Positions 1 to 18,027 of a stretch of DNA of 18,213 nucleotides are shown one piece after another. The position numbers and the translations under genes are program-made. Where the stretch lies: positions 1 through 18,213 of the forward strand of contig JBHIAT010000064.1 in the NCBI GenBank assembly GCA_046758705.1. Direction: 5' to 3'. Numbering within the stretch: position 1 is the first letter of the stretch; every line of letters starts with the position of its first letter. Source of the stretch: Candidatus Bipolaricaulia bacterium. Its GTDB lineage: Bacteria > Bipolaricaulota > Bipolaricaulia > JBHIAT01. Under the pieces are notes generated by a model, which was not told where the DNA came from, searched no databases, and worked only from the letters and a program-made list of their open reading frames with translations.

Positions 1-189
1 CATCTCGGCGCTCTTCGGAATGTTTCGGGAGGCCGGCTTGTAATCGACCGTCACCTTGAGCACCTGGCCACCCTCCATCTCCTCCAGGGCGAGCTTCGTC
101 TTGACGAACGTGTACGGGCAGACCTCACCCGTCAGGTCGATCTCCTTATCGACTTTCTGTTTCACTGCTAACGTCGCAGAATGCTGCAT
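1..189 (-). CDS. TusA/SirA-family sulfur carrier protein (5' part, runs off window edge; not in ORF track)
   Basis: Manual translation from ATG at 189: MQHSATLAVKQKVDKEIDLTGEVCPYTFVKTKLALEEMEGGQVLKVTVDYKPASRNIPKSAEM. It has the TusA D-L-x-G-x-x-C-P motif and a GGGAG SD upstream. Confidence 0.9.
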   Translation of the reverse strand, partial: MQHSATLAVKQKVDKEIDLTGEVCPYTFVKTKLALEEMEGGQVLKVTVDYKPASRNIPKSAEM

Positions 190-215
190 AATCGATCAAC
201 TCCCTGAAGCCGAGA

Positions 216-587
216 TCAGATGAATGTCACCACCGTCTCCGGGCCGACCGCTTCCTGGAGGGTCAACAGAAACCCGGTGACGTCCTCGAAGGTGACGCCC
301 TCGTCAAGCATCTCCTCAGTGATCCCTAGCGCTTCCAGCATCTGGAACGAGGGGGCACAGGCGCAGACGTGCACCCCCTGGCCCAAAGCGTCCTTGAAGT
401 ACCGATCGATGGGCGGCATTCCCTCAAGCCTGATCGCGTTGCGTCGTTCAGGATGAACCAAGTCAAGGCCATCCATGGTGGAATAGATATGGGCTTCATT
501 TCCCATCGCCGCCGCGCCCATCGCGAACGTCAGCGCCGGATAGACCCGCTTAGGGTCGTTGGAGAGTAATACGATAAACAGCTTCAT
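216..587 (-). CDS. DsrE/DsrF/DrsH-like (peroxiredoxin-like) sulfur relay protein
   Basis: 123 aa with YPALTFAMGAAAMG..IYSTMDGL and VCAC motifs, ending in VTFI, typical of DsrE-family proteins. GGAGG SD upstream. Confidence 0.85.
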   Translation of the reverse strand: MKLFIVLLSNDPKRVYPALTFAMGAAAMGNEAHIYSTMDGLDLVHPERRNAIRLEGMPPIDRYFKDALGQGVHVCACAPSFQMLEALGITEEMLDEGVTFEDVTGFLLTLQEAVGPETVVTFI

Positions 588-599
588 CAGGATCCCTCC

Positions 600-1445
600 T
601 CAGCGTTCGATCGGGACGTTTACCAGGCTGCCGTATTCGGTCCAGGAGCCGTCATAGTTACGGACCTGGGAGTAGCCAAGCAGCTCCTTCAGCACGAACC
701 AGGTATGGGACGAGCGCTCGCCGATGCGGCAGTAGGCGATGACCTCGCTCTTGGGTTTAACGTCTCCGTAGAGTGCCTTGAGCTCATCAACCGACTTGAA
801 CGTTCCGTCCTCGTTCGCCGCCTTGCTCCAGGTGATGTTCAACGCACCGGGGATGTGCCCCGGCACCTGAGCCTGCTCCTGGGACAGATGGGGCGGAGCG
901 AGCAACTCCCCACGGAACTCCTCGGGTGAACGAACATCCACGAAGGCGGCGTCGTTGCGTTCCACCCGCTCAAGCACAAGGTTTCGGAATGCCCGCAACT
1001 CAGCTCGCGGCTTCTCCGGCAGCGTGACCGGTTGATTGGCTGGCGCGACGTTCGGGACTTCGGTGACCAGCTGCCGGTTCTCCAGCTCCCACTTCTTGCG
1101 ACCACCGTTCATCAGTCGGACGTTCTCTACGCCCCAGTACTTGAGATACCAGTAGGCGTAAGCGGCGAACCAGTTGTTGTTCCCGCCGTAGAGAACCACG
1201 GTCGTCTCAGGGGAGACCCCGGACCGGGCAAGCAGCTCCTGAAGGTCCGTCCGACCGATGAAGTTTCGACGGAGGGAATCGTGCAGGTCGTCCTGCCAGT
1301 GCCAGGCGATCGCACCCGGAACGTGGCCCTTCTGATAAGCTTCGGTGTCCTCATCGACCTCGACGATCCGGACGTTCGGATCGTTCAGCTGTCCTTCAAC
1401 CCATTGGGTGTCAACTAAAGCGTTCGGATTGGCATATTCGGCCAT
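600..1445 (-). CDS. Tandem-domain rhodanese / thiosulfate sulfurtransferase (SseA/CysA-like)
   Basis: GHVPGA and GHIPGA repeats, VDVRSPEEF, active-site loop YCRIGERS and C-terminal YDGSWTEY. Strong AAGGAGG SD. Confidence 0.95.
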   Translation of the reverse strand: MAEYANPNALVDTQWVEGQLNDPNVRIVEVDEDTEAYQKGHVPGAIAWHWQDDLHDSLRRNFIGRTDLQELLARSGVSPETTVVLYGGNNNWFAAYAYWYLKYWGVENVRLMNGGRKKWELENRQLVTEVPNVAPANQPVTLPEKPRAELRAFRNLVLERVERNDAAFVDVRSPEEFRGELLAPPHLSQEQAQVPGHIPGALNITWSKAANEDGTFKSVDELKALYGDVKPKSEVIAYCRIGERSSHTWFVLKELLGYSQVRNYDGSWTEYGSLVNVPIER

Positions 1446-1491
1446 TTTTGTTTCCTCCTTCTTTCTTTTGTTGGGAATTAGATGCTTGTGG

Positions 1492-1536
1492 GTAGGAGCG
1501 TAAATGGGGTTTAGCCGTTCACCCCATTTACGCTAC
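1492..1536. repeat. Intergenic inverted repeat (14-bp perfect stem, 10-nt loop)
   Basis: AGCGTAAATGGGGT (1497-1510) pairs with ACCCCATTTACGCT (1521-1534), flanked by GTAG (1492) and CTAC (1533-1536). No U-tract on the coding strand. Confidence 0.85.
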
Positions 1537-1760
1537 TTACACTTCTTGAGGGTAAGCTTCCAACTTCCCTGGTCTTCCTGGGTCTCGACCAGTTCGTGTC
1601 CGGCGTTCTTCGCCCAGTTCGGGATGGTCTCGGTCGCCTCGAAGTTGTCGATCCACAGCTCGAGGAGGTCCCCGACTTCGAGCTCGGCCACCCGCTTCTT
1701 GGTGCTCATCAACGTGTAAGGGCAGATCTCACCGCGGATATCAAGCTGGTGCTTCGCCAT
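1533..1760 (-). CDS. TusA/SirA-family sulfur carrier protein
   Basis: Likely start is the ATG at 1760 with SD GGAGGTGA: MAKHQLDIRGEICPYTLMSTKKRVAELEVGDLLELWIDNFEATETIPNWAK..., 75 aa. The ORF-track extension to 1874 lies inside the upstream gene. Confidence 0.92.
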   Translation of the reverse strand: MAKHQLDIRGEICPYTLMSTKKRVAELEVGDLLELWIDNFEATETIPNWAKNAGHELVETQEDQGSWKLTLKKCK

Positions 1761-2589
1761 TGACTTCACCTCCATCTTCAACCGGCAGATCGTCCCGGTT
1801 GCCCCACTCACCCCATGAGGCGTCATAGACCCGAACGTTCGGGTAGCCCAACAGCCGCATGGTGAAGTAAGCATGTGCCGATCGGACGCCGGTCTGGCAG
1901 TAGTTCACCAGCGTTCGCTCCGGATCCAGTCCCGCCTCCCGATAGATCCGATCGAGTGCCTCAGGAGGCTTGAACCGGAGGTCGTCAGGGTCCAGGCTCA
2001 TCTCCCATCGGACGAGGATCGAGTCCGGGATGTGTCCGCCCCGTTTTGACAGCACGTCCTCACCGGTGTACTCTTCAGGTGAGCGATTATCGACGATCTG
2101 GACGTCGGGATCGTTCAGGTGTTCCAAGATCCACTCCCACTGCGCATGTCGCTCGGGGATCGGTTTGGCGTTGAACGATCGGGGCTCGACATCGGGGATC
2201 TCGGTTGAGATCGGTTTTTCGCTGGAAATCCATTCTTCGATGCCACCATCGAGCAGTCTGACCTGGGGATGACCGTAGTACTCGAGCGCCCAGAACAGAT
2301 AGGCGGCGTCGACCTGGCCTCGCTCCCCGTAGATGACCACCGGGGTCCGTTCGTCGATGCCGACCCTGCCGACGACCTCAGCGACCACCTCCCTGGGGGC
2401 GACAACCCGGGCCCCGTTCTGGAGCACCGTGACCTCCATGACGAACAGATTGACCGCTCCGGGGATGTGCCCGGCGATGTATTTCGGGTAGATGCGGGCG
2501 TCGACAATTCGGAGATCCGGATCGTCGAGCCGGCCCTCGAGCCAATCGGGGCTGACAAGCAGTCCGTGGTGCTCATCCATCGGGATCAT
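1741..2589 (-). CDS. Tandem-domain rhodanese / sulfurtransferase
   Basis: GHIPGA, GGHIP, VDNRSPEEY, active-site loop YCQTGVRS and YDASWGEW. Start is either 2589 (ATGA overlap with upstream stop) or 2580. Confidence 0.93.
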   Translation of the reverse strand: MIPMDEHHGLLVSPDWLEGRLDDPDLRIVDARIYPKYIAGHIPGAVNLFVMEVTVLQNGARVVAPREVVAEVVGRVGIDERTPVVIYGERGQVDAAYLFWALEYYGHPQVRLLDGGIEEWISSEKPISTEIPDVEPRSFNAKPIPERHAQWEWILEHLNDPDVQIVDNRSPEEYTGEDVLSKRGGHIPDSILVRWEMSLDPDDLRFKPPEALDRIYREAGLDPERTLVNYCQTGVRSAHAYFTMRLLGYPNVRVYDASWGEWGNRDDLPVEDGGEVNGEAPA

Positions 2590-4013
2590 TTCCCTCCAGC
2601 GTCTCTGATGCGAAAATCCTCGGGCCAATCAGCGATGTATCGCCTGGCGATCTCGGGGACAGAGAGCGTCCCCATCCCGGCTCTCTTCGCTGTCACCGTC
2701 CCGATTACCTGGGGATCGTAGTCGAGCGCTTCCAGCTCCCGTCTGACCTGCTCGATCACGCGTTCGGAAGCGATGATCGCCACCGCGCCGTTCGTCCCTG
2801 AGGTGCCGTTGGGAATGATGAACTGCTCGGTTGCAACCTGGACGGCACGCTCGTATTGAATCGGGATCTCTTCGAGATCGACATCGACGCCGGCGAGTTC
2901 GGCAATCTCCTGAAAGATCCGAATTCCGGGGCCGGAGAGATCTCCGGTGACCTTGATATGTCGATCGGGATCGAACGATTCGTCGAACGCCGGGCTGTAA
3001 CGGTTGATGAGCCGGCCGACCTCCAGGTTCGGGCGACTCATCACCTCGATGACCTGGTCTTTCATCTCCCTCAACGCTTCGGGATCGAAGCCAAGTTCTC
3101 CGAGATAGTCGGGGCCCATGATCAGTCCATCGATGTACAGGTTGATCGGTGCCAGATCACCGAGCGGCCGGTGGACCAAGATGCGGTCGCCGCGCTCCAG
3201 GTGGTCGTAGAAGGTCGGTGTCCGCTTGCCCGTCTCGCCGAAGGCGGTCACTCCGAGCAGCAGTGTCCGCTCTGAGACCGGTTCCTGCTCGACGAGTTCC
3301 ATGTCGTAGCGCTCAGCATACGCGCTCATGTTTTCCAAGAGCGCCTCACGCAACGTCGGGTCAGGAGCCGCATAGACCGGATAGAGTCGCAGGTTCTCGA
3401 CCGCCCCCAGAGAGAACAGGTCGTTGAGCGCGTTGCTGAACGCTGTCGCAATCTGTGCCTCATCCCTCAGGTCGAGCGTCGGATCGATGAGCTGGATGGT
3501 ATCGTTGTTCACCACCAGGTAGCCGGTCGGGTCTTCCCGACCATCGCCGGTCTTATAGAAGTCGAACAGGGTGAACTCATCGTCCTTGGAGTAAGCCTCG
3601 ATCGTGTGACCCTTCCCCACCGTCATCCGCACTCCCTGAGCGGCGATTTGCTCATAGAGGTTCAGCCACCTCTGCTTGAGCACCTCCGGATCATGGACGC
3701 GATAGATCGATGTCAGGGTGATCGCCCGCTCGGGGTTGAACTCTCGAAGCCCGTTGACGCTCGGCTCATTCGACCGATAGATCCGACGCATAATCTTCGG
3801 TTCCCCATATTTCAAGGAGATGTCGGCATCCTCCCGTGCCGCCAGGGCGATCCCCTTCGCCTCTAATGGGCCACGAATCTCCCTGAGCGCGGGGTAGACG
3901 ACCCGATCGAGGTCGATCTTCACCGAGCATCCGCACGCGAGCTTCCGCGGATCGATGTTCATGTCGTTAAAGTAAGCTTCAATCTCTTCCCAACTCCGCA
4001 GTTGAAGACTCAT
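2586..4013 (-). CDS. SelD-related (PurM/AIRS-fold) putative sulfur metabolism protein
   Basis: N-terminal LACGCSVKID (SelD C-x-x-K), NNDTIQLIDP, SNALNDLFSLG, GDRILVHRPLG, TGDLSGPG and GTNGAVAI align by eye with SelD motifs. 475 aa, longer than canonical SelD. GGGAGG SD. Confidence 0.8.
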   Translation of the reverse strand: MSLQLRSWEEIEAYFNDMNIDPRKLACGCSVKIDLDRVVYPALREIRGPLEAKGIALAAREDADISLKYGEPKIMRRIYRSNEPSVNGLREFNPERAITLTSIYRVHDPEVLKQRWLNLYEQIAAQGVRMTVGKGHTIEAYSKDDEFTLFDFYKTGDGREDPTGYLVVNNDTIQLIDPTLDLRDEAQIATAFSNALNDLFSLGAVENLRLYPVYAAPDPTLREALLENMSAYAERYDMELVEQEPVSERTLLLGVTAFGETGKRTPTFYDHLERGDRILVHRPLGDLAPINLYIDGLIMGPDYLGELGFDPEALREMKDQVIEVMSRPNLEVGRLINRYSPAFDESFDPDRHIKVTGDLSGPGIRIFQEIAELAGVDVDLEEIPIQYERAVQVATEQFIIPNGTSGTNGAVAIIASERVIEQVRRELEALDYDPQVIGTVTAKRAGMGTLSVPEIARRYIADWPEDFRIRDAGGK

Positions 4014-4106
4014 GAATTCCTCCCGTCTCCGTTCGTCTTGATCGCTGTACTATAGAGCGTCTGTGCCTTCTCGTCTGTAATGATGATTACATCCCGATAT
4101 CGGCGA

Positions 4107-5099
4107 TCACCATTTGAACGTGTTGGTTGACAGATACCGATCACCTCCGTCGGGAAACAGGACCACGATCGTCCGTTCCTCATTCGATTTCGATTCCGAA
4201 TACCGTTCAGCAAGGCGCAGCGCGCCGAGGAATGCAGCGCCGGCCGAGGGGCCAACGAGCAGCCCTTCCTTACGGCCGATCCGCCGCGCGGCCCACTTCG
4301 CCTCCTTATCTTCGATCTCGATGATCTCGTCGATCCACGACTCGTGGTAGATACCCGGTTTTTTATTGCCCACCGGCCGTCGCAGACCCATGATGTAATC
4401 CTTGGGCCACACCGAGATCACCTCGGTCTCGGGATGGCTCTCCTTGAGCCGGGTCGAGACGCCCATGAGCGTGCCGGTCGTTCCCGACGGAGCGACGAAC
4501 GCGTCGACGTGACCGAGCGCGTTCAGGATCTCCCTGCCGGTCGTCTCGTAGTGGGCGAACGAGTTGGCTTCGTTGAAGTGCTGAGCGATCCAGACGTAGC
4601 CGTCCCGCTCGCTCAACTCCCGAGCGGCGGCGATGGCGCCGTCGGTGCGCAACTCGCCCGGCGTTAGCCGAATCCGGGCCCCGTAGGCCCGGATCATCCG
4701 ACGGCGTTCCTCGCTCACGTTGTCAGGCATCAGGATCAATACCCGGTGGCCGAGGGTCCTGCCCACCATCGCCACCGAGATTCCGGTGTTGCCCGAGGTC
4801 GCTTCGACGATCGTTGCTCCTGGGGTCAGCTTGCCTCGTTCGATGGCGTCGGCGATCATGTAAAGGACGATCCGGTCCTTAAGCGACCCCGAAGGGTTGT
4901 ACCCCTCGAGCTTGGCGTATACGGTGACATTCTCGTAAGGGTTGAGCCTGCAGATTTTCACCACGGGTGTGTTTCCGATCAGATGCAGGACCGAGCCCTG
5001 ATGGGTTTGCAGGATCTCTGCCACCTGACGCCGCACGGCCTCGGCATGTTCGGTGGCTAAGATCGGACTCTCCAAAGAGGGGCTACTTCGTACAGACAT
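4107..5099 (-). CDS. cysM: PLP-dependent cysteine synthase family protein, CysM-like
   Basis: IGNTP, KLEGYNPSGSLKDR (PLP Lys), EATSGNTG, SGTTGT and GPSAGA motifs. The IMGLRR loop resembles CysM (GIRR) rather than CysK (QGIG). AAGGAG SD precedes the ATG at 5099. Confidence 0.85.
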   Translation of the reverse strand: MSVRSSPSLESPILATEHAEAVRRQVAEILQTHQGSVLHLIGNTPVVKICRLNPYENVTVYAKLEGYNPSGSLKDRIVLYMIADAIERGKLTPGATIVEATSGNTGISVAMVGRTLGHRVLILMPDNVSEERRRMIRAYGARIRLTPGELRTDGAIAAARELSERDGYVWIAQHFNEANSFAHYETTGREILNALGHVDAFVAPSGTTGTLMGVSTRLKESHPETEVISVWPKDYIMGLRRPVGNKKPGIYHESWIDEIIEIEDKEAKWAARRIGRKEGLLVGPSAGAAFLGALRLAERYSESKSNEERTIVVLFPDGGDRYLSTNTFKW

Positions 5100-5192
5100 T
5101 AAAACGCTCCTTACGAATAGGTTGAACAAACTAGAGGATTCCAGAGGAACGGAACCAGATGGGAATCTATCAGAATGGAGGCGAGCTTGATC

Positions 5193-5249
5193 TCAGCGCA
5201 TCGGACCCGAATCGGAGTTCGGGCGACAAACACGATCACCTCGAGTCAT
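5193..5249 (-). CDS. Putative leader peptide/uORF MTRGDRVCRPNSDSGPMR
   Basis: GGAGGTGA SD 7 nt before the ATG at 5249, TGA at 5195-5193. Lies between the promoter and the cysM-like gene. Confidence 0.4.
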   Translation of the reverse strand: MTRGDRVCRPNSDSGPMR

Positions 5250-5290
5250 CCCACACTCACCTCCGCAGGCTCACCTTGTGAGTTTAAGAT

Positions 5291-5315
5291 TAACCGGAGC
5301 ATTTTACTCCGTATT
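5291..5315. promoter_or_regulatory. Putative operator palindrome (Rrf2-family-like) downstream of the sulfur operon promoter
   Basis: TAACCGGAGCATTTTACTCCGTATT: CGGAG-N7-CTCCG with AT-rich centre and flanks, about 20 nt downstream of the -10 box. Confidence 0.5.
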
Positions 5316-5335
5316 TAGCTACAAACACTGGGGTA

Positions 5336-5364
5336 ATTGTAACAGAATGAACCGCACCTGTCAA
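5336..5364 (-). promoter_or_regulatory. Sigma70-type promoter of the sulfur operon
   Basis: TTGACA (5364-5359), 17 nt, TACAAT (5341-5336), with an extended -10 TG. Confidence 0.8.
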
Positions 5365-5423
5365 GCCCTTGGCTCTCAAAAGCTGTACAAAAGGCGCTTT
5401 CCGTCGATAACGCTCGTTAGCCT

Positions 5424-6152
5424 TTAAGCGAACCGTTTTACATATTCCTCGTGAGGGTGGACGACGATATCCTCGAAGACCATATGAGTCGGGGTTCCGG
5501 CGACATACAGCACCATCCCCGCAACGTCGTCCGGGCTCAGGAAGTTGGCGGTGTCCGGCGGATTCGGAACCAGATCCCAGAATGGGGTGTCGATCCCACC
5601 GGGACAGAGGGTATCGACACGGACCCCGTGGTGGATCGCCTCCTTTTTCAAGCTGCCGGCGAAGCCGACCAGGGCAAACTTGGTAGAAACGTAGGCACTC
5701 TCGCCCGGCAGACCGTATTTGCCGGCAACCGATGCAATGTTGATAATGTGGCCGGACCTCTGGTCCTTCATCCTCTCGTAGGCAGCCTGGGCACAGTAGA
5801 TCGCGCCCTTGAGGTTGGTGTCGAACAGCACCTCCAGATCTTCGCCCTTCACGGTTTCGATCGGACCGTAGATTCCCAGACCGGCGTTGTTGACGAGGAT
5901 GTCAATCCGCCCGTACTGCTCCACCGTCCGGGCGATCAGTGCCTCACATTGTTCTCGGCTGCGGATATCGGTCGGAACGGGGAGCGCCTCGCCTCCCTGT
6001 GAACGGACCTCGTCAGCGACCACCTCAAGCTTCTCGGCGGTTCGGCCCGCCAGGATCAACTTGGCCCCGTTGGCTCCAAGGAGCTGGGCGGTCGAGCGAC
6101 CGACCCCGCTGCCCGCGCCGGTGATTACGACTGCTTTGTCTGCAACATTCAT
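5424..6152 (-). CDS. Short-chain dehydrogenase/reductase (SDR) family oxidoreductase
   Basis: TGAGSGVG, NNAG, ASVAG and YVSTK (YxxxK) motifs. ATGA overlap with the upstream gene. Confidence 0.95.
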   Translation of the reverse strand: MNVADKAVVITGAGSGVGRSTAQLLGANGAKLILAGRTAEKLEVVADEVRSQGGEALPVPTDIRSREQCEALIARTVEQYGRIDILVNNAGLGIYGPIETVKGEDLEVLFDTNLKGAIYCAQAAYERMKDQRSGHIINIASVAGKYGLPGESAYVSTKFALVGFAGSLKKEAIHHGVRVDTLCPGGIDTPFWDLVPNPPDTANFLSPDDVAGMVLYVAGTPTHMVFEDIVVHPHEEYVKRFA

Positions 6153-12627: not shown

Positions 12628-15411
12628 TCAAGGTTGCACATCTTTCCGTTCATCCCTCATCCGGTGCGTCAGGAGCGCGGGGAGCAGCGTGAGGCTGAAC
12701 AGGGTGGTGAACCCGATCCCGAGGGTCGCTGAGATGCCGAGCATCTGGGTCCCGGGCGTTCTAGCGAACAGCAGGCTTCCGAAGACCATCAGCGTGGTCA
12801 ACGAGGTAACCAGGATCGCCAGGCCGGTGGAAAGCAATGCCCGTTTGATATCGTGCACCTCCCGGTAGCCATGAAGCAGATGGATGCCATGGTCGACCCC
12901 GATGCCGATCAACAGCGGGGAGATCAGAATGTTGATGAAGTTGAAGCTGATTCCCAGAATGCCCATCCCCCCGAGCATCCACGCGTACCCCAGCGCCAGG
13001 GGCAAGATCGCCAGCAGTGCGTCTCTGATTCTCCGGAAACTCCCAATCAGTAAGAGCAAGATGACGGCGACGGCAATCGCCGTCGACACCCAGAAGTCGC
13101 GCTTGATATAATCGGCCAACCGGCCTTGGATCATCGCTAACCCCAGAAAATCCTCAGCGAACTCGGAGGCACGGTTAACGAACGCGTTCAGCTGATCTTC
13201 CTGGAATATTTCGGGGCCGACGTGGGCGTAGATGACGAACTCGCCCTCGGGCGTAAGATAGCGGCTCCTCAGGGCGTTGGGGAGGCTCATTGTCAAGGTG
13301 CGCAGATCGATCCCCTCCTCAGTGGGGGCGATGTTTACACCATTAAAGAGTGTCTCGAACTGTACGCTCAACTGTTTAACCCCATCCTCCAGTTCTCGGA
13401 GGTCGGCGACCGTCCCGGATCGGTTCAACTGGATCAACTGCCCACGGAGGCCGGTGAGCTGGCCAATCAGTCCTTGAAGCTTTATCATCAGATCCCCGTG
13501 GCCGGACAGCGATAACGCCATCCCGAGGGGGGATAGGTTGAGGAGAAGTCGATCGATCTCCTCCAAGATCATGCGGCGCTCCTCCAGGTTGGTGCGTATC
13601 CAGGAGAGCTCCCGGCCTCGCTCACGGATCGCATGGGGCAGTGATGCAAGTCGAGTGAGCGTCTCGGTCCGCTCAGTGTAATCGGCGGGAAGCAAACTCT
13701 TGATCGAGCTGGTCGCGTTCACCATCGTCAGATCAGCCAAATTTTTCGAGATAAGTTCGAGTTCTTGGGATGTTTTGGCGAAGAATAAGAAGAAACGACC
13801 CAAATTTTTGACCTGTTGAGGCCCAAAATGCTCTTCAATTCGTTTTAAAGTCCGTTGACTCTCTAATCCCTGAGGTATAAGTCGCTCCTCCGAGAAGATG
13901 AACCGCACCCGGGCCGCTTGGGAAACCATGAACAGGGTGAGGAGAACGGTGATGATCATCAAGCCCGTCCTCCGCCTCAGGATCGTTCCTGCTAGACCTG
14001 GACCCCATCTCGGTCGCCTGCGGGGCGTCAGCGGCAGACGGAACGGAAGCCGGCGGTCGATGCGATGCACGGTGACGATGAGGGCGGGCATCACGAACAA
14101 CTCGGCGACGAAGGTGGCGAGCACGCCGCCCCCCCCGATTATCCCCATCTCATAGAGACCTCGGGAGCGAGCTACCAGTAAGCTGAGGAAGACGAGCGTG
14201 GTGGTGAACGCGGCCGTCAGCGTCGCCTCCCCCTTGTTGAGGATCATCGACTCGATCGCCTCCGGCACACTCTTTCCGAGTTCCCGTTCCTCGCCATACC
14301 GGGCCAGGAGGTGGATCCCGTAGTCGATGCCCAGCCCCAGGATCACAGCGGGCAAGAATCCGGTGATCAGATTCAGATGGCCGATGGTGAGCTTGGCCCA
14401 GGCGAGCATCATGACCACACCCATCCCCAGGGGGATGAGGATCAGCACGGTATAGAGCGGAGTCCCGAAGAACAGCAAGAAGATGATGGCCACCCCGACC
14501 GAAGAGATGATGGTGATGAACCGGATATCCTCCCGGATGATCCGATTTTGCTCGTGGGTGGCGAGATAGGATCCGGTGAGGTTCACTTCAATCCCCTCGG
14601 CTTCGAGCGGTTTGAGCTGGGATCGGACCGTCTTCACGATCCGGGCGTTGTAGGCAAGACTCCGTTGCGAACCCAGCCGGGGTCTGACGTTGACGAGCAG
14701 CATCCGGCCGTCTGGTGACAGGTAGAGATGCTCCTCCTCGGCTTGGCTCAACCGGGCATCCATCGCCTCTGTCAGCTCGAGGAGAGAAGCGAGTTCCACC
14801 CGCCTGACCTCCAGGTCGGAGAGCTCCCTGAGCGCGTGTGCCACTTGGTCGTTCAACCGGCCCAGTTCCTCCAACCGCCGGGCGATCCCTTCAGGATCCA
14901 CCCGCCCGCCGCTGCCGGCCGGCGCCTCTTCGATCGCCCGATTCAGCTCCCGGTAGATCTCGGCCAGACGTGATTCTGTGGGAGGAAGCTCGGGGCGCGT
15001 CAGGAACGCGTCGAGCTCATCGCGGTGACGCTCCACGGCCTCCGCCACCTCCCCGCTCAGGATGGGGCGGAGGGGTATCGCCCCCTCACCATAGCGGACC
15101 TCCACGATCTCCTCATCGCGCAACAGCGAGATGGTCAGTTGTTCAGCGGCCTGCTTCAGCCGTTCTTCATCCGCGTTCGCTGACGCGAGCAATACCGTCA
15201 GGTAATCCGCTCCGGAGATCGTACGCTCCCGTCCCTGGAACGTCTCGATGAGTGGGTCCCCGTTTGGGAATAGGGTCAGGGTTGAGCTATCGACCTTCAG
15301 ATCGCGAATATAGAGGCCAGAACCCAGAGTCAGTCCGGTGAAGACGACCAGGATCCATCCACTATAAGACCGGATTAATCGGTAGATCGCTCTCAGGAAG
15401 CTATTTCTCAT
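12628..15411 (-). CDS. MMPL/RND-family transporter (HpnN/MmpL-like)
   Basis: 927 aa with two repeats of 1+5 TM helices carrying GLGIDYGIH and GIGVDHGIH, and large helical extracytoplasmic loops. Confidence 0.9.
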   Translation of the reverse strand: MRNSFLRAIYRLIRSYSGWILVVFTGLTLGSGLYIRDLKVDSSTLTLFPNGDPLIETFQGRERTISGADYLTVLLASANADEERLKQAAEQLTISLLRDEEIVEVRYGEGAIPLRPILSGEVAEAVERHRDELDAFLTRPELPPTESRLAEIYRELNRAIEEAPAGSGGRVDPEGIARRLEELGRLNDQVAHALRELSDLEVRRVELASLLELTEAMDARLSQAEEEHLYLSPDGRMLLVNVRPRLGSQRSLAYNARIVKTVRSQLKPLEAEGIEVNLTGSYLATHEQNRIIREDIRFITIISSVGVAIIFLLFFGTPLYTVLILIPLGMGVVMMLAWAKLTIGHLNLITGFLPAVILGLGIDYGIHLLARYGEERELGKSVPEAIESMILNKGEATLTAAFTTTLVFLSLLVARSRGLYEMGIIGGGGVLATFVAELFVMPALIVTVHRIDRRLPFRLPLTPRRRPRWGPGLAGTILRRRTGLMIITVLLTLFMVSQAARVRFIFSEERLIPQGLESQRTLKRIEEHFGPQQVKNLGRFFLFFAKTSQELELISKNLADLTMVNATSSIKSLLPADYTERTETLTRLASLPHAIRERGRELSWIRTNLEERRMILEEIDRLLLNLSPLGMALSLSGHGDLMIKLQGLIGQLTGLRGQLIQLNRSGTVADLRELEDGVKQLSVQFETLFNGVNIAPTEEGIDLRTLTMSLPNALRSRYLTPEGEFVIYAHVGPEIFQEDQLNAFVNRASEFAEDFLGLAMIQGRLADYIKRDFWVSTAIAVAVILLLLIGSFRRIRDALLAILPLALGYAWMLGGMGILGISFNFINILISPLLIGIGVDHGIHLLHGYREVHDIKRALLSTGLAILVTSLTTLMVFGSLLFARTPGTQMLGISATLGIGFTTLFSLTLLPALLTHRMRDERKDVQP

Positions 15412-15430
15412 CTACTTGACAAACCCACCC

Positions 15431-15459
15431 ATTCTACCGGAAAGTCCGGCCGCGCTCAA
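15431..15459 (-). promoter_or_regulatory. Putative promoter of the MMPL-ABC operon
   Basis: TTGAGC (15459-15454), 17 nt, TAGAAT (15436-15431), giving a very short leader to the ATG at 15411. Confidence 0.5.
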
Positions 15460-15512
15460 CTGTTCCCGACACACCTTGCGGCGCCGAGGTGAGGTTGGGG
15501 GAGGCAATGCGG

Positions 15513-15547
15513 AAGTTGCTCCTCTCTGATAGGGAGCAACTTTTTTT
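15513..15547 (+). terminator. Intrinsic terminator-like hairpin
   Basis: AAGTTGCTCC, 9-nt loop (TCTCTGATAG minus one base depending on register), GGAGCAACTT, continuing into a T7 run. No upstream plus-strand gene is evident. Confidence 0.55.
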
Positions 15548-15563
15548 CGCTCCCCGAGTATTT

Positions 15564-15592
15564 TTGACAATCCGGTGAACCGGTGCTATAAT
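15564..15592 (+). promoter_or_regulatory. Consensus sigma70 promoter of the spt operon
   Basis: TTGACA (15564-15569), 17 nt, TATAAT (15587-15592) with extended TG. The spacer contains the palindrome CCGGT-GA-ACCGG. Confidence 0.85.
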
Positions 15593-15694
15593 TTGGCCAA
15601 ATTGGGATGGACTGCTGAGTCCTTGATCCCGGATATGCAGATCTATATGCCCCTCAAGGAGGTCAAAAAGGAGGAGGATTCTAACCTAACCCCC

Positions 15695-16876
15695 ATGAGT
15701 TTATTCGAAAAATGCCGGCAGTTTACCGAGGCCAGGCAGGCTCAGGCTGCTGGTTATTATCCTTATTTCATCCCAATCCAGGATGCGGACGCTACCGCGG
15801 TGGTGATCGACGGGAAGCAGAAAGTGATGATCGGTTCGAACAACTACCTCGGGCTGACCCACCATCCCAAGGTGATCGAGGCGGCGGAACAGGCGCTGAA
15901 AAAGTACGGCAGTGGCTGCACGGGAAGCCGCTACCTCAACGGGACTCTGGCTCTTCACGAGGAGCTCGAGGCCAAGCTGGCGGACTTTCTACATATGGAG
16001 GCAGCGTTGGTCTTCAGCACCGGTTTCCAAACCAACCTGGGCATTATCTCCGCGCTGGTGGGGGATGGCGATGCGGTGTTCATCGACAGGCTAGATCACG
16101 CGAGCATCGTCGATGGGTGTCGATTATCCTATGGTGAGACGATCCGGTTCCGGCATAACGATATCGACGATCTAGAGCGAGCGGTCGTGGAGGTCGGTCC
16201 AGAGAAGGGCAAGCTGATCGCCGTCGACGGGATCTACAGCATGGATGGGGACATCGCCGACATCCCCGGGATCCTGTCCATTGCCCAAGAATACGGGTGT
16301 CAGTTGATGATCGACGATGCCCATTCGATCGGCGTGCTTGGGGAGAACGGCCGGGGGACCGCCGAGCACTTCGGGGTGGAGGACCAGGTGGATCTGATCA
16401 TGATCACGTTCAGCAAATCGTTAGCCAGCATCGGGGGGATGGTCGCGGGCGACGAAGACGTCATCCATTACATCAAACATTATGCGCGTAGCATGATCTT
16501 CAGTGCCAGCGCGCCGCCGAGCTCGGTCGCCACCGTCATCGCCGCTCTGGAAGTTATTCAGGAGGAGCCAGAACGACAGGAGAACCTGTGGCGCAACACA
16601 AGAAAGATGAAGCGGGAGTTCAACCGGCTGGGCTTCGATACGGGGAAGAGTGAGACACCCGTCATCCCGATCATCGTGAGGGACGTGATGAAGACCGCCT
16701 TTCTGTGGCGACGGCTCTTCGACGAGGGGGTGTTCACCAACGTGGCGATCAGCCCGGCTGTCCCTGTGGGCAGTGAGCGGTTGCGGACGAGCTACATGGC
16801 CACCCATACGGACGAACAGCTCGATTTCGTCCTGGATAGGTTCGAGAAGATCGGGAAGGAGTTGAGGATCATCTAG
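15695..16876 (+). CDS. spt: Alpha-oxoamine synthase, probable serine palmitoyltransferase
   Basis: YYPYF, GSNNYLGLT, GCTGSRYLNGT, DHASIVDG, DDAHSIG, TFSKSLASIGG (PLP Lys) and RLRTSYMATH resemble bacterial SPT, and the neighbours are bCerS-like and ACP. Start uncertain (15635, 15647 or 15695). Confidence 0.8.
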   Translation: MSLFEKCRQFTEARQAQAAGYYPYFIPIQDADATAVVIDGKQKVMIGSNNYLGLTHHPKVIEAAEQALKKYGSGCTGSRYLNGTLALHEELEAKLADFLHMEAALVFSTGFQTNLGIISALVGDGDAVFIDRLDHASIVDGCRLSYGETIRFRHNDIDDLERAVVEVGPEKGKLIAVDGIYSMDGDIADIPGILSIAQEYGCQLMIDDAHSIGVLGENGRGTAEHFGVEDQVDLIMITFSKSLASIGGMVAGDEDVIHYIKHYARSMIFSASAPPSSVATVIAALEVIQEEPERQENLWRNTRKMKREFNRLGFDTGKSETPVIPIIVRDVMKTAFLWRRLFDEGVFTNVAISPAVPVGSERLRTSYMATHTDEQLDFVLDRFEKIGKELRII

Positions 16877-16902
16877 CGATCTGGTGATCGAGTAGAGCCA
16901 TC

Positions 16903-18027
16903 ATGGCGATCGAAGTGGTTCCGGTCCGTTCGAAGCGAGACTTGCGTCGGTTCATCAAGTTCCCCTGGACCGTTTATCGGAATGATCCGAATTGGGTCCC
17001 TCCACTCATCAGTGAGATGAAGAAGTTTCTTGATCCTAACAAGAACCCGTTCTTTGAACACGCTGATGTGGAGCTGTTTCTGGCTGAAGAGGATGACCGG
17101 GTGCTCGGGAGAATCGCGGCGATTGTGAACCATAACCATATCGAATTACATGATGAGCAGGCAGGGTTCTTCGGATTCTTCGAGGTGCTGGACCGGTATG
17201 AGGTCGCTGAACGGCTGCTGGCGACTGCTTGTGACTGGTTGCGGAACCGGGGGATGGAGATCGCCCGGGGACCGGCGAACTTCTCCTCTAACGATGAGTG
17301 GGCGTTGTTGATCGAAGGGTTCGATGAGCCTCCGGTGGTCATGATGCCCTACAACCCGAAGTACTACATCGACTTTTTGGAAAGATTCGGCTTCAAAAAG
17401 GCGAAAGACCTGTTCGCCTACGTGATCACCGAGGAGGATCTGCCTGAGAAGCTCGTCAACCTGATCAACTGGATCGAGGTGATCAAAAGGAGAAAGGGAA
17501 TCACGATCAGGAAGGGTAATATGAAGGCGTTCGATCAAGAGGTAGAAATCATCAAAGAGATCTATAACTCCGCCTGGGAGAAGAATTGGGGGTTCGTCCC
17601 GATGACCGATCGCGAAGTTCAGCATCTGGCGAGCAACCTGCGGCGGATTATCGATCCGGATTTCGCCTTCTTTGCTGAGATCGGAGGGGAGCCGGTCGGT
17701 TTTGCACTCTCCATTCCGGACATCAATCAAGCGCTCATACGCATCAACGGGAGATTGTTCCCGTTTGGGATATTCAAGCTGCTTTGGGCATCAAGAAAGA
17801 TCGATACCCTGAGGTTTATCCTCATCGGGACCAAAGCGTCGTATCGCAATATGGGGATCAACGCCCTGTTCTACTATGAGATGTTCCATGCCGGTCAGAA
17901 GAAGGGATATAAAAAGGCGGATTTCTCATGGGTTCTGGAAGATAACACGGTAGTGACAAGTATTCTGGAGAAAACGGGCTCAAAAATTAAAAAGAAGTAT
18001 AGAGTATATGACTTTCAGCTGCATTAA
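16903..18027 (+). CDS. GNAT-fold protein, YghO / bacterial ceramide synthase (bCerS)-like
   Basis: DLRRFIKFPW..Y..DPNWVPPL, GRIAA, GFFGFFE, MMPYNP.YY, YN.AW..NWGF.P and SWVLEDN motifs. Directly downstream of spt. Confidence 0.75.
   Translation: MAIEVVPVRSKRDLRRFIKFPWTVYRNDPNWVPPLISEMKKFLDPNKNPFFEHADVELFLAEEDDRVLGRIAAIVNHNHIELHDEQAGFFGFFEVLDRYEVAERLLATACDWLRNRGMEIARGPANFSSNDEWALLIEGFDEPPVVMMPYNPKYYIDFLERFGFKKAKDLFAYVITEEDLPEKLVNLINWIEVIKRRKGITIRKGNMKAFDQEVEIIKEIYNSAWEKNWGFVPMTDREVQHLASNLRRIIDPDFAFFAEIGGEPVGFALSIPDINQALIRINGRLFPFGIFKLLWASRKIDTLRFILIGTKASYRNMGINALFYYEMFHAGQKKGYKKADFSWVLEDNTVVTSILEKTGSKIKKKYRVYDFQLH

Follow-up and report, generated by a model that had tools for sequence, protein, structure and literature searches.

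The stretch of DNA analysed here, called the window below, is the entire 18,213-base contig JBHIAT010000064.1 (C64) of a Candidatus Bipolaricaulia bacterium. The assembly has 3.70 Mb in 319 contigs, with a completeness of 93.9% and a contamination of 4.7%. Seven minus-strand open frames lie in series within positions 1-5364, and each has a family match. They encode a CysM-type cysteine synthase dependent on pyridoxal phosphate (PLP), a SelD-like enzyme, two tandem-domain rhodaneses, two TusA proteins and a DsrE-like sulfur carrier (Table 1). The gene content, the family memberships, the co-inherited arrangement of the CysM-type, SelD-like, rhodanese and TusA genes and a TsuA-like importer module on another contig were directly established. 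From these sequences we propose, tentatively and with a little less than even confidence, that in this Bipolaricaulota-type bacterium the operon uses ATP to activate sulfane sulfur passed on by carrier proteins, and that the activated sulfur goes into cysteine.

A first-pass annotation of the window described seven co-oriented, tightly spaced or overlapping genes under one clear promoter. The co-orientation was borne out, with full-length family matches for all seven minus-strand frames. The spacing was borne out in part. The sequence ATGA joins the stop of the SelD-like gene to the start of rhodanese 1, and rhodanese 1 and TusA 1 share 20 nucleotides (nt). However, the remaining intergenic gaps are 93, 87, 12 and 26 nt, the first of which separates the CysM-type and SelD-like genes, and "tight" does not describe them. 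As for the promoter, the site at 5364-5336 is the sole such site in 1-5600, but shuffled regions average 1.6 sites each. The site is therefore a consensus match and not proof of a promoter, and "clear" was too strong.

The Cys-based carriers named in the annotation all have their cysteines, in the motifs given in Table 1. Cys77 of the DsrE-like protein is invariant in 4/4 aligned sequences. The TusA motif is CPYT here, and the available text of PMC5322559 gives the TusA-type motif as CPXP. None of the seven frames contains an in-frame TGA, in agreement with the annotation, which had seen no selenocysteine (Sec) codon in these genes.

Table 1. Genes and signals in the operon region of the window.
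Feature	Position	Strand	Remarks
Sigma-70-like promoter site	5336..5364	-	TTGACA-17-TACAAT with TG extension; 11/12 consensus matches
Leader, promoter-like site to CysM-type start	5100..5335	-	~235 nt; no Rfam family; fold z-score -1.33
Divergent CysM-type PLP cysteine synthase	4107..5099	-	ATG with AAGGAG ahead; longest frame from TTG 5129; PALP 238.1 bits
SelD-like enzyme (NF038049)	2586..4013	-	475 amino acids; 452.5 bits against a cut-off of 250; Cys27-x-Cys29-x-x-Lys32; GKGH133-136 insertion
Tandem-domain rhodanese 1	1741..2589	-	PF00581 137.3 bits in 2 stretches; Cys of the C-terminal domain in CQTGVRS
TusA 1	1533..1760	-	PF01206 78.1 bits; Cys in EICPYT; ribosome site GGAGGTG
Intercistronic hairpin without U-tract, TusA 1 / rhodanese 2	1497..1534	-	14 bp; -25.2 kcal/mol; z-score -5.51
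Tandem-domain rhodanese 2	600..1445	-	PF00581 119.1 bits in 2 stretches; Cys in CRIGERS; ribosome site GAAGGAGG
DsrE-like sulfur carrier	216..587	-	PF13686 42.4 bits; PF02635 27.8 bits; conserved Cys77
TusA 2	1..189	-	PF01206 61.0 bits, profile positions 1-48 of 70; Cys in EVCPYT; 3' end cut at the contig end

The hairpin between TusA 1 and rhodanese 2 is perfect and begins within the TusA 1 stop codon, and 0/200 shuffles folded as well. It splits the operon into a CysM-SelD-like-rhodanese-TusA part and a rhodanese-DsrE-TusA part. The first part recurs in loci L121 and L130.

A riboswitch in the leader was considered and rejected. Rfam gave no match in the window at E<=1, the fold z-score is -1.33 (Table 1), and the sequence upstream of CysM is not conserved against the four related loci L121, L122, L130 and L127. 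Two of these loci, L130 (3760-4040) and L127 (380-660), have in common a stretch upstream of CysM that holds TCGCCTTTGT twice. This stretch, which is not in the window leader, may be an operator.

The operon region is covered by contigs of three DNA runs from one study, labelled hydrothermal vent metagenome, and one contig spans 835-5400. Contigs from two of the runs continue ~250-260 nt beyond position 1. At 694-1180, inside the rhodanese 2 gene, none of the three runs gives unbroken contigs: there are loose ends and, in one run, one 422-nt skip. These breaks probably reflect strain variation or cross-assembly with rhodanese paralogues.

The SelD-like enzyme and its family

The SelD-like protein matched the NCBI model NF038049, "SelD-related putative sulfur metabolism protein", its residues 13-462 covering positions 8-456 of the 465-position profile. 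This model has one match in the whole genome. No Pfam family matched the protein, and the selD model TIGR00476 gave no match at E<=0.01. Weak matches were obtained with thiL (20.8 bits) and hypE (18.5 bits). Since the protein falls short of the selD model despite its SelD-type fold and residues, we call it a predicted SelD-type ATP enzyme and not a SelD.

We aligned 25 diverse family members, and Gly28, Cys29 and Lys32 were invariant in 25/25. GKGH133-136, Asn169, Thr172, Asp177, Asn194, Leu196-Leu199 (including Asn197 and Asp198), Asp358, Thr404 and Gly406-Ala410 were also invariant. Cys27 is a second invariant cysteine, found in 23 members of the bacterial clade. The spacing Cys29-x-x-Lys32 mirrors Sec/Cys20-x-x-Lys23 in the canonical SelD of relatives. 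In an hhalign profile-profile comparison (probability 96.3, E 1.7e-9), for which related genomes supplied three canonical SelD sequences, Asn194, Asp198 and Asp358 aligned with Asn89, Asp93 and Asp228 of SelD.

The N-terminal Asp62 and Asp171 were matched to Asp53 and Asp70 of SelD by counting spacings and not by alignment. By the same count, the spacing from the Cys loop to the next acidic pair is 33 residues in SelD and SelD-like alike, and the SelD-like protein has an insertion of ~90 (about 92) residues at ~64-165, which holds GKGH. The insertion also contains an invariant Arg76 and a nearly invariant Tyr120. An ESM Atlas search with residues 60-170 returned nothing above chance level.

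The AlphaFold (AF2) model of the protein, computed from the family alignment, has a predicted local distance difference test score (pLDDT) of 92.9 and a predicted template modelling score of 0.92; the pLDDT of the Cys-x-x-Lys loop is 74. The top solved matches of the model in Foldseek were selenophosphate synthetases (E 6.9e-18). In VIA-align, human SPS1 scored Z 27.5, with a root-mean-square deviation of 2.9 over 308 residues, and E. coli SelD scored Z 25.1. HypE, ThiL and PurM scored lower (23.9, 21.8 and 20.4, respectively). As modelled, the enzyme has a SelD-type fold and a SelD-type Cys-x-x-Lys loop.

The family was described in Sulfolobales and Thermoproteales by Li, Jiang, Ni, Liu and Zhang (2014, BMC Genomics 15:908, PMC4210487). 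The first-pass annotation had named such an archaeal family, and the NF038049 match confirms that the protein belongs to it. According to the available text of Li et al. 2014, no sequenced bacterium or eukaryote has SelD-like. The text names SirA-like and "Prx-like" COG2210 neighbours and an acylphosphatase fusion in Thermoproteales, and it proposes that SelD-like synthesizes thiophosphate (PMC4210487). A link to cysteine is examined in that text through SepRS/SepCysS alone, and none was found. Reviews of 2022 and 2026, in their available parts, restate the proposal with no new data, and the NCBI model already gives bacterial proteins from metagenome-assembled genomes (MAGs) the SelD-related name. 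The family and its thiophosphate hypothesis are thus already known. In contrast, neither the bacterial clade nor its conserved association with a TsuA-like importer and a dedicated CysM-type synthase is described in the literature searched, where we found no description of a bacterial SelD-like protein, or of Bipolaricaulota in connection with selenophosphate.

The family is small. A word-indexed search gave 118 clusters at E<=1e-5, and of the 1.84 billion representative proteins searched with a profile, 94 matched at E<=1e-30. In the phylum of the Bipolaricaulota/Acetothermia group, SelD-like is found in 8/184 species genomes, this one included. It is also found in loci titled Thaumarchaeota, Halobacteria, Hydrothermarchaeales and Acidobacteriota. 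The range is wider than the hyperthermophilic Crenarchaeota in which the family was first described, and the membership of the window protein is unaffected by this.

We built a quick maximum-likelihood tree of 81 rows, from which three partial sequences were dropped and in which three SelD sequences served as outgroup. When the tree was rooted on these, the 78 SelD-like rows formed one side with a support of 100. Together with the missing TIGR00476 match, this answers, with respect to SelD, the profile and phylogeny check suggested in the first-pass annotation, and places the protein outside canonical SelD. The window protein lies within a 7-row bacterial clade with a Shimodaira-Hasegawa-like approximate likelihood ratio test (SH-aLRT) support of 100. 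The sister of this clade is Baldrarchaeota plus Methanoperedens (support 99). With the SelD outgroup, the bacterial clade is nested inside archaeal diversity, and the Acidobacteriota sequence is placed elsewhere. The tree suggests that SelD-like passed from archaea to bacteria at least twice, with a direction inferred from a rooting whose outgroup branch is long.

The CysM-type enzyme and its gene neighbourhood

Among solved structures of known type, the best match of the CysM-type protein was E. coli CysM (2bhs, 225 bits). The protein passes the Pfam PALP cut-off of 35 bits by a wide margin (Table 1). SLKDR (PLP lysine), TSGNTG (Asn loop) and IMGLRR (short CysM loop) align to 2bhs without long gaps. 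The Arg-Arg of the short loop aligns to residues 210-211 of 2bhs. The loop at this site is longer in the CysK-type chain 9jxu and in the second CysK of this genome. The available text of PMC12895370 describes CysM as the thiosulfate isoform with a characteristic Arg. No cysE was found at cut-off in the genome (best 44.6 bits against 210.65), and O-phosphoserine is a candidate substrate of the CysM-type enzyme besides O-acetylserine.

The PLP gene is the first of the operon, and its product has weak NCBIfam matches to desulfhydrase and dehydratase models. These observations would fit a reversed flow, in which the CysK/M-fold enzyme is a cysteine desulfhydrase-type donor of sulfide or persulfide to the SelD-like enzyme, in the way proposed for NifS-like lyases and SelD. 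A delivery of this kind has been proposed for SelD, with Sec lyase and Cys desulfurase as selenium donors (PMC13188914, available part). However, the best matches of the enzyme are the biosynthetic CysM and CysK, the CysM-type anion loop is kept, and a separate sulfur supply, consisting of the importer and the rhodaneses, is already encoded. We regard the reversed flow as very unlikely.

In a large protein collection, 31 clusters form a CysM subclade at 333-441 bits. After a gap come ordinary 302-residue proteins, none above 277 bits, that are named "cysteine synthase B / S-sulfocysteine synthase". Eleven of the 31 clusters are on contigs equal in size to SelD-like contigs, which is an indirect sign of linkage. 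In the phylum, the subclade (>=330 bits, 52-65% identity) is present in 7/184 genomes, six of which also have SelD-like, and the next match scored 264 bits. In genome G072 the subclade gene is unlinked to SelD-like and stands beside a MOSC gene.

To survey gene neighbourhoods, we searched 80 genome loci, 72 of them archaeal, by tblastn with the window proteins as queries. A TusA gene lies within 400 nt of SelD-like and on the same strand in 50/80 loci, and a rhodanese gene within 3 kb in 22/80. The window DsrE-like protein, used as query, detected a relative in 2/80 loci, which is weak backing beyond the window. We take the "Prx-like" COG2210 protein of the archaeal loci to be a DsrE-like protein. 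A CysM-type gene is directly upstream of SelD-like in 4/80 loci (L007, L023, L026 and L050), all bacterial. The neighbourhood survey proposed in the first-pass annotation therefore gave a divided answer: the CysM link is conserved within the bacterial clade, but it is not family-wide.

In Pfam scans of the 8 bacterial loci we found PALP in 4, TusA in 5, rhodanese in 3, YeeE-type in 2, beta-propeller in 2, DsrE in 2 and acylphosphatase in 1. In 12 archaeal loci scanned in this way we found TusA in 8, YeeE in 4, rhodanese in 4, acylphosphatase in 2 and PALP in none, counts from which the open reading frame filter lost at least one TusA (L022). A metagenome scan with the bacterial-clade alignment found 14 loci, and a CysM-type gene is directly upstream in 9/14; three of these nine are the same contigs as genome loci. 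The same type of scan with the single SelD-like protein found no loci.

The gene order is also repeated. L121 and L130 have the order CysM-SelD-like-rhodanese-TusA, L122 has CysM-SelD-like-rhodanese-rhodanese-YeeE-TusA, and L023 has CysM-SelD-like-propeller-rhodanese-YeeE-TusA. The CysM-type and SelD-like frames overlap by 4 nt in L023 and L050. Orthologues of rhodanese 1 (48-56% identity) follow SelD-like in L121, L122 and L130, and orthologues of TusA 1 (55% identity) have the same position in L121 and L130. An orthologue of the DsrE-like protein (64-65% identity) is near CysM/SelD-like in L050, L124 and L133. The CysM-type and SelD-like trees share the split of the window, L121, L122 and G072 from L050, L130, L127, L007 and L023, with an SH-aLRT of 100 in each. 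This common main split indicates that the CysM-type/SelD-like pair was co-inherited.

Grouping with canonical SelD, full Sec machinery in the genome and an unconserved neighbourhood were the computational outcomes that the first-pass annotation named as contrary to its proposal. None of the three was observed.

The Acidobacteriota MAG locus L008 (2420-12228) has the order SelD-like-TusA-rhodanese-acylphosphatase-TusA, back to back with a second gene set. The second set contains CCG, Fer4, thioredoxin, GcvH-like, DsrE and LplA genes and an ArsR regulator, and an SQR/FCSD-like gene is nearby. L008 is a separate bacterial acquisition of SelD-like in a sulfur-oxidation context.

This context brings up dissimilatory sulfur oxidation, with TusA, DsrE and rhodanese as an accessory relay that would supply sulfur to an oxidising system of the sHdr type or the like. 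L008 has the SelD-like-TusA-rhodanese row right beside such candidate genes, and according to the available text of PMC11094781 sHdr systems come with such transferase sets. However, no such genes were found in the window or in the other 7 bacterial loci, and the enzyme that adjoins SelD-like here is a cysteine synthase. We give this explanation hardly any probability for the window operon.

The importer and the selenium traits of the genome

The sole YeeE-type gene listed in the genome is on contig C104 (L093 1167-3894, minus strand), in the order beta-propeller-rhodanese-YeeE-TusA, with the beta-propeller gene cut by the contig end. The same propeller-rhodanese-YeeE-TusA module follows SelD-like in relatives. 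A hydrophobic stretch in its translation suggests that the C104 rhodanese is membrane-anchored. The C104 YeeE passes Pfam Sulf_transp (287.5 bits against 27). On the TsuA model NF052577, which has a cut-off of 400, it scored 314.1 bits, and the YeeE proteins of L005 and L023 scored 281 and 253 bits. On YedE/FdhT the same proteins scored 113-115 bits. The C104 TusA is below the cut-offs of both TsuB/YeeD (NF041048, 48.1 against 147.5 bits) and YedF (62.1 against 79 bits).

This TsuA-like importer module, a further part of the system that is absent from the first-pass annotation, points to thiosulfate as the sulfur source. Thiosulfate uptake by YeeE/YeeD is known (PMC11073785, available part). 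A TsuA-like/TusA pair is within the SelD-like operon itself in L122, L023, L005 and L132. From the gene order in L122, L023 and L132 it is plausible that the C104 module continues the window operon past position 1, although the two contigs have no overlapping sequence.

Several traits would also suit a selenium role, in which the SelD-like enzyme makes selenophosphate for selenium use or detoxification and the CysM-type enzyme makes free selenocysteine. The SelD fold and the Cys-x-x-Lys loop fit such a role, and the TusA proteins match YedF models below cut-off. An association of YedE, YedF and SirA with SelD has been published (PMC5322559, available part). Three archaeal YeeE partners of SelD-like lean toward YedE/FdhT, and a gene of the YqeB family is present in the genome (288 bits; cut-off 220). 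In addition, SelD (4/184 genomes) and SelD-like (8/184) never occur together in the phylum. However, at such rarity the overlap expected by chance is itself ~0.2 genomes. The bacterial-clade importers score far better as TsuA, and 29 of the 33 genomes with YqeB have neither SelD nor SelD-like.

The genome itself also argues against selenium. The best selD match was 49.2 bits against a cut-off of 125, at other loci. Neither selA nor mnmH/selU gave a match, and none of the 47 tRNAs is for Sec; selB was not searched on its own. The lack of Sec and SelU traits, which the first-pass annotation had seen in the window, extends to the whole genome in these respects. We consider a selenium role very unlikely.

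YqeB is present in 33/184 genomes of the phylum, including 2/8 SelD-like genomes and 2/4 SelD genomes, and the "selenium-dependent" label of the YqeB family looks doubtful in this phylum. In the present genome, contig C140 (L120 5062-8177, minus strand) has a MocA-YqeB-XdhC/YqeB-N row. The possibility that SelD-like replaces SelD for the labile Mo-cofactor ligand was rejected, as across the phylum the presence of YqeB does not follow that of SelD or of SelD-like.

Genome G092 is the sole SelD-like-free genome of the CysM subclade, and it has canonical SelD, SelA and SelB. At L118 (4480-9962) of this genome, two selD genes in tandem come after selA-selB, and the first of the two contains an in-frame TGA. 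A link between the CysM subclade and these genes was also considered, and the single case (n=1) was taken as chance.

The rest of the window contains a further group of genes at 12628-18027. There, a minus-strand gene for a 927-residue HpnN/BstA-like resistance-nodulation-division (RND) transporter faces genes for a GNAT-domain protein and a serine-palmitoyltransferase-like enzyme (NF047600, 544.6 bits, below the cut-off of 640). The group may serve the synthesis and export of sphingolipid- or hopanoid-type lipids.

A candidate route from sulfane sulfur to cysteine

In the route that we propose for the operon, thiosulfate or a related sulfane compound would be imported by the TsuA-like/TusA pair. 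The rhodaneses would accept its sulfane sulfur in the form of a Cys persulfide, and TusA and the DsrE-like protein would carry the sulfur onward. The acceptor on the SelD-like enzyme would be a mobile N-terminal loop with Cys27, Cys29 and Lys32. The SelD-like enzyme would spend ATP, as SelD does with selenide, and form an activated sulfur species, most simply monothiophosphate. The CysM-type PLP enzyme could use thiophosphate as the nucleophile on its aminoacrylate intermediate to form S-phosphocysteine, which would give cysteine and phosphate. The route would be the sulfur counterpart of selenophosphate-to-selenocysteine.

By analogy, thiophosphate would suit a CysM-type enzyme, as it has the shape of thiosulfate, the anion of CysM, and is its phosphorus analogue. 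S-phosphocysteine would give cysteine by plain hydrolysis, whereas S-sulfocysteine needs a reductive step. The more specific proposal, that inorganic thiophosphate is a true metabolite made by SelD-like and used by the dedicated CysM-type enzyme for cysteine, with putative producer and consumer encoded next to each other in this operon, appears doubtful to us.

We compared this operon with four known systems. The archaeal SelD-like proteins belong to the same family, with the same Cys-x-x-Lys loop, SelD-type residues and SirA/TusA and "Prx-like" partners (Li et al. 2014, available text). In contrast to them, the window protein belongs to a bacterial clade with the second invariant Cys27, has no acylphosphatase fusion and has a CysM-type gene directly upstream. 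Canonical SelD with SelA shares the PurM-superfamily fold and a Cys or Sec three residues before a Lys, and three Asn and Asp residues that are candidate ligands align between the two proteins. A PLP enzyme is likewise the proposed consumer of the activated chalcogen. Unlike canonical SelD, the protein here has the ~90-residue GKGH insertion and no TIGR00476 match, and its genome has no Sec machinery. Unlike SelA, which acts on a tRNA-bound substrate, the PLP enzyme here has a CysK/M fold, which acts on free amino acids.

The E. coli TsuA/TsuB (YeeE/YeeD)-CysM system likewise combines a TsuA-like importer, a TusA-like partner and a CysM-type enzyme, all of which are in one operon in L122. Compared with this system, the scores here are below cut-offs (TsuA 314 against 400; CysM 294 against 394), and tandem rhodaneses, a beta-propeller and the ATP-using SelD-like enzyme are added. 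In Mycobacterium tuberculosis CysO-MoeZ-CysM, an adenylating enzyme makes a protein thiocarboxylate, which donates the sulfur. The likeness is a CysM-type enzyme fed by a dedicated ATP-activated donor and not by free sulfide, as we propose here. The differences are that no ThiS/MoaD-like carrier was seen here and that the ATP enzyme belongs to the PurM/SelD type. The CysM-type protein also matches E. coli CysM (225 bits) more closely than its mycobacterial counterpart (~168 bits), for which we take PDB chains 3dwg and 3dki to represent the mycobacterial system.

The main rival to ATP-dependent activation is direct assimilation. Here the CysM-type enzyme would use thiosulfate or persulfide itself, with thiosulfate giving S-sulfocysteine, and the rhodaneses, TusA and DsrE would merely shuttle sulfur. 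SelD-like would serve another sink, e.g. as sulfur donor for cofactor or RNA thiolation. As SelD-like occurs in archaea without an adjacent CysM, it must serve a different sink there. The description of CysM as the thiosulfate isoform (PMC12895370, available part) fits this explanation, as does the use of glutathione persulfide by cysteine synthases (PMC13188885, available part). The gene arrangements fit as well. The TsuA-like importer and TusA share operons with CysM/SelD-like, and G092 keeps a CysM-rhodanese pair without SelD-like. Archaeal SelD-like is accompanied by TusA, YeeE and rhodanese but not by PALP or CysM-type genes, and TtuA-type and ThiF-type genes are near SelD-like in L053 and L022. 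However, direct assimilation leaves unexplained why the CysM subclade is nearly confined to SelD-like genomes (6/7). It also leaves unexplained the direct upstream position of the CysM-type gene, the start-stop overlap in L023 and L050, and the split common to both trees. We judge direct assimilation unlikely, while treating it as the foremost competitor.

Several points weigh against ATP-dependent activation of sulfur for cysteine, and against its thiophosphate step in particular. The CysM-type protein is below the curated cut-offs of TIGR01138 cysM (294.1 against 394.2 bits) and TIGR01136 cysKM (302.1 against 344.15 bits), and for this reason we named it CysM-type and not CysM. A CysM-type gene was found by tblastn in 0/72 archaeal loci and PALP in 0/12 Pfam-scanned archaeal loci. 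Within the bacterial clade, L005, L006, L040 and L132 are without the CysM link. In G092 the subclade gene is followed by a rhodanese, with no SelD-like in the genome, and the CysM-type enzyme can therefore work without SelD-like. In the window, the CysM-type and SelD-like genes are separated by the 93-nt gap and do not overlap.

The genome also has other sulfur genes. An ATP sulfurylase and a sulfite-reductase-type gene are present, together with a second CysK on contig C224 (336 bits), and the operon would therefore be an accessory route. The thiophosphate step is not needed to explain the PLP gene, as CysM takes thiosulfate directly and cysteine synthases can use persulfides, including glutathione persulfide (PMC13188885). 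Conversion of S0 to thiophosphate requires two electrons, for which there is no evident source. Thiophosphate as the SelD-like product is a hypothesis dating from 2014. In the literature searched we found no experimental work on the SelD-like family and no paper that ties thiophosphate to a cysteine synthase.

The proposed function of SelD-like has been in print for more than ten years, and in archaea no neighbour tells which enzyme consumes its product. The bacterial operon offers a candidate consumer, the CysM-type enzyme, and a candidate source, the TsuA-like importer with the rhodaneses. A vague "sulfur metabolism" label thus becomes a two-enzyme question that can be approached with recombinant proteins. 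If the proposed route is true, it would give thiophosphate its first biological role, and it would be a third feed to cysteine synthase, besides free sulfide or thiosulfate and protein thiocarboxylate. It would be new sulfur biochemistry, with a bearing on how selenium and sulfur activation diverged. If thiophosphate is not made or used, the operon would still mark a new accessory route from thiosulfate to cysteine, in a phylum of uncultured bacteria.

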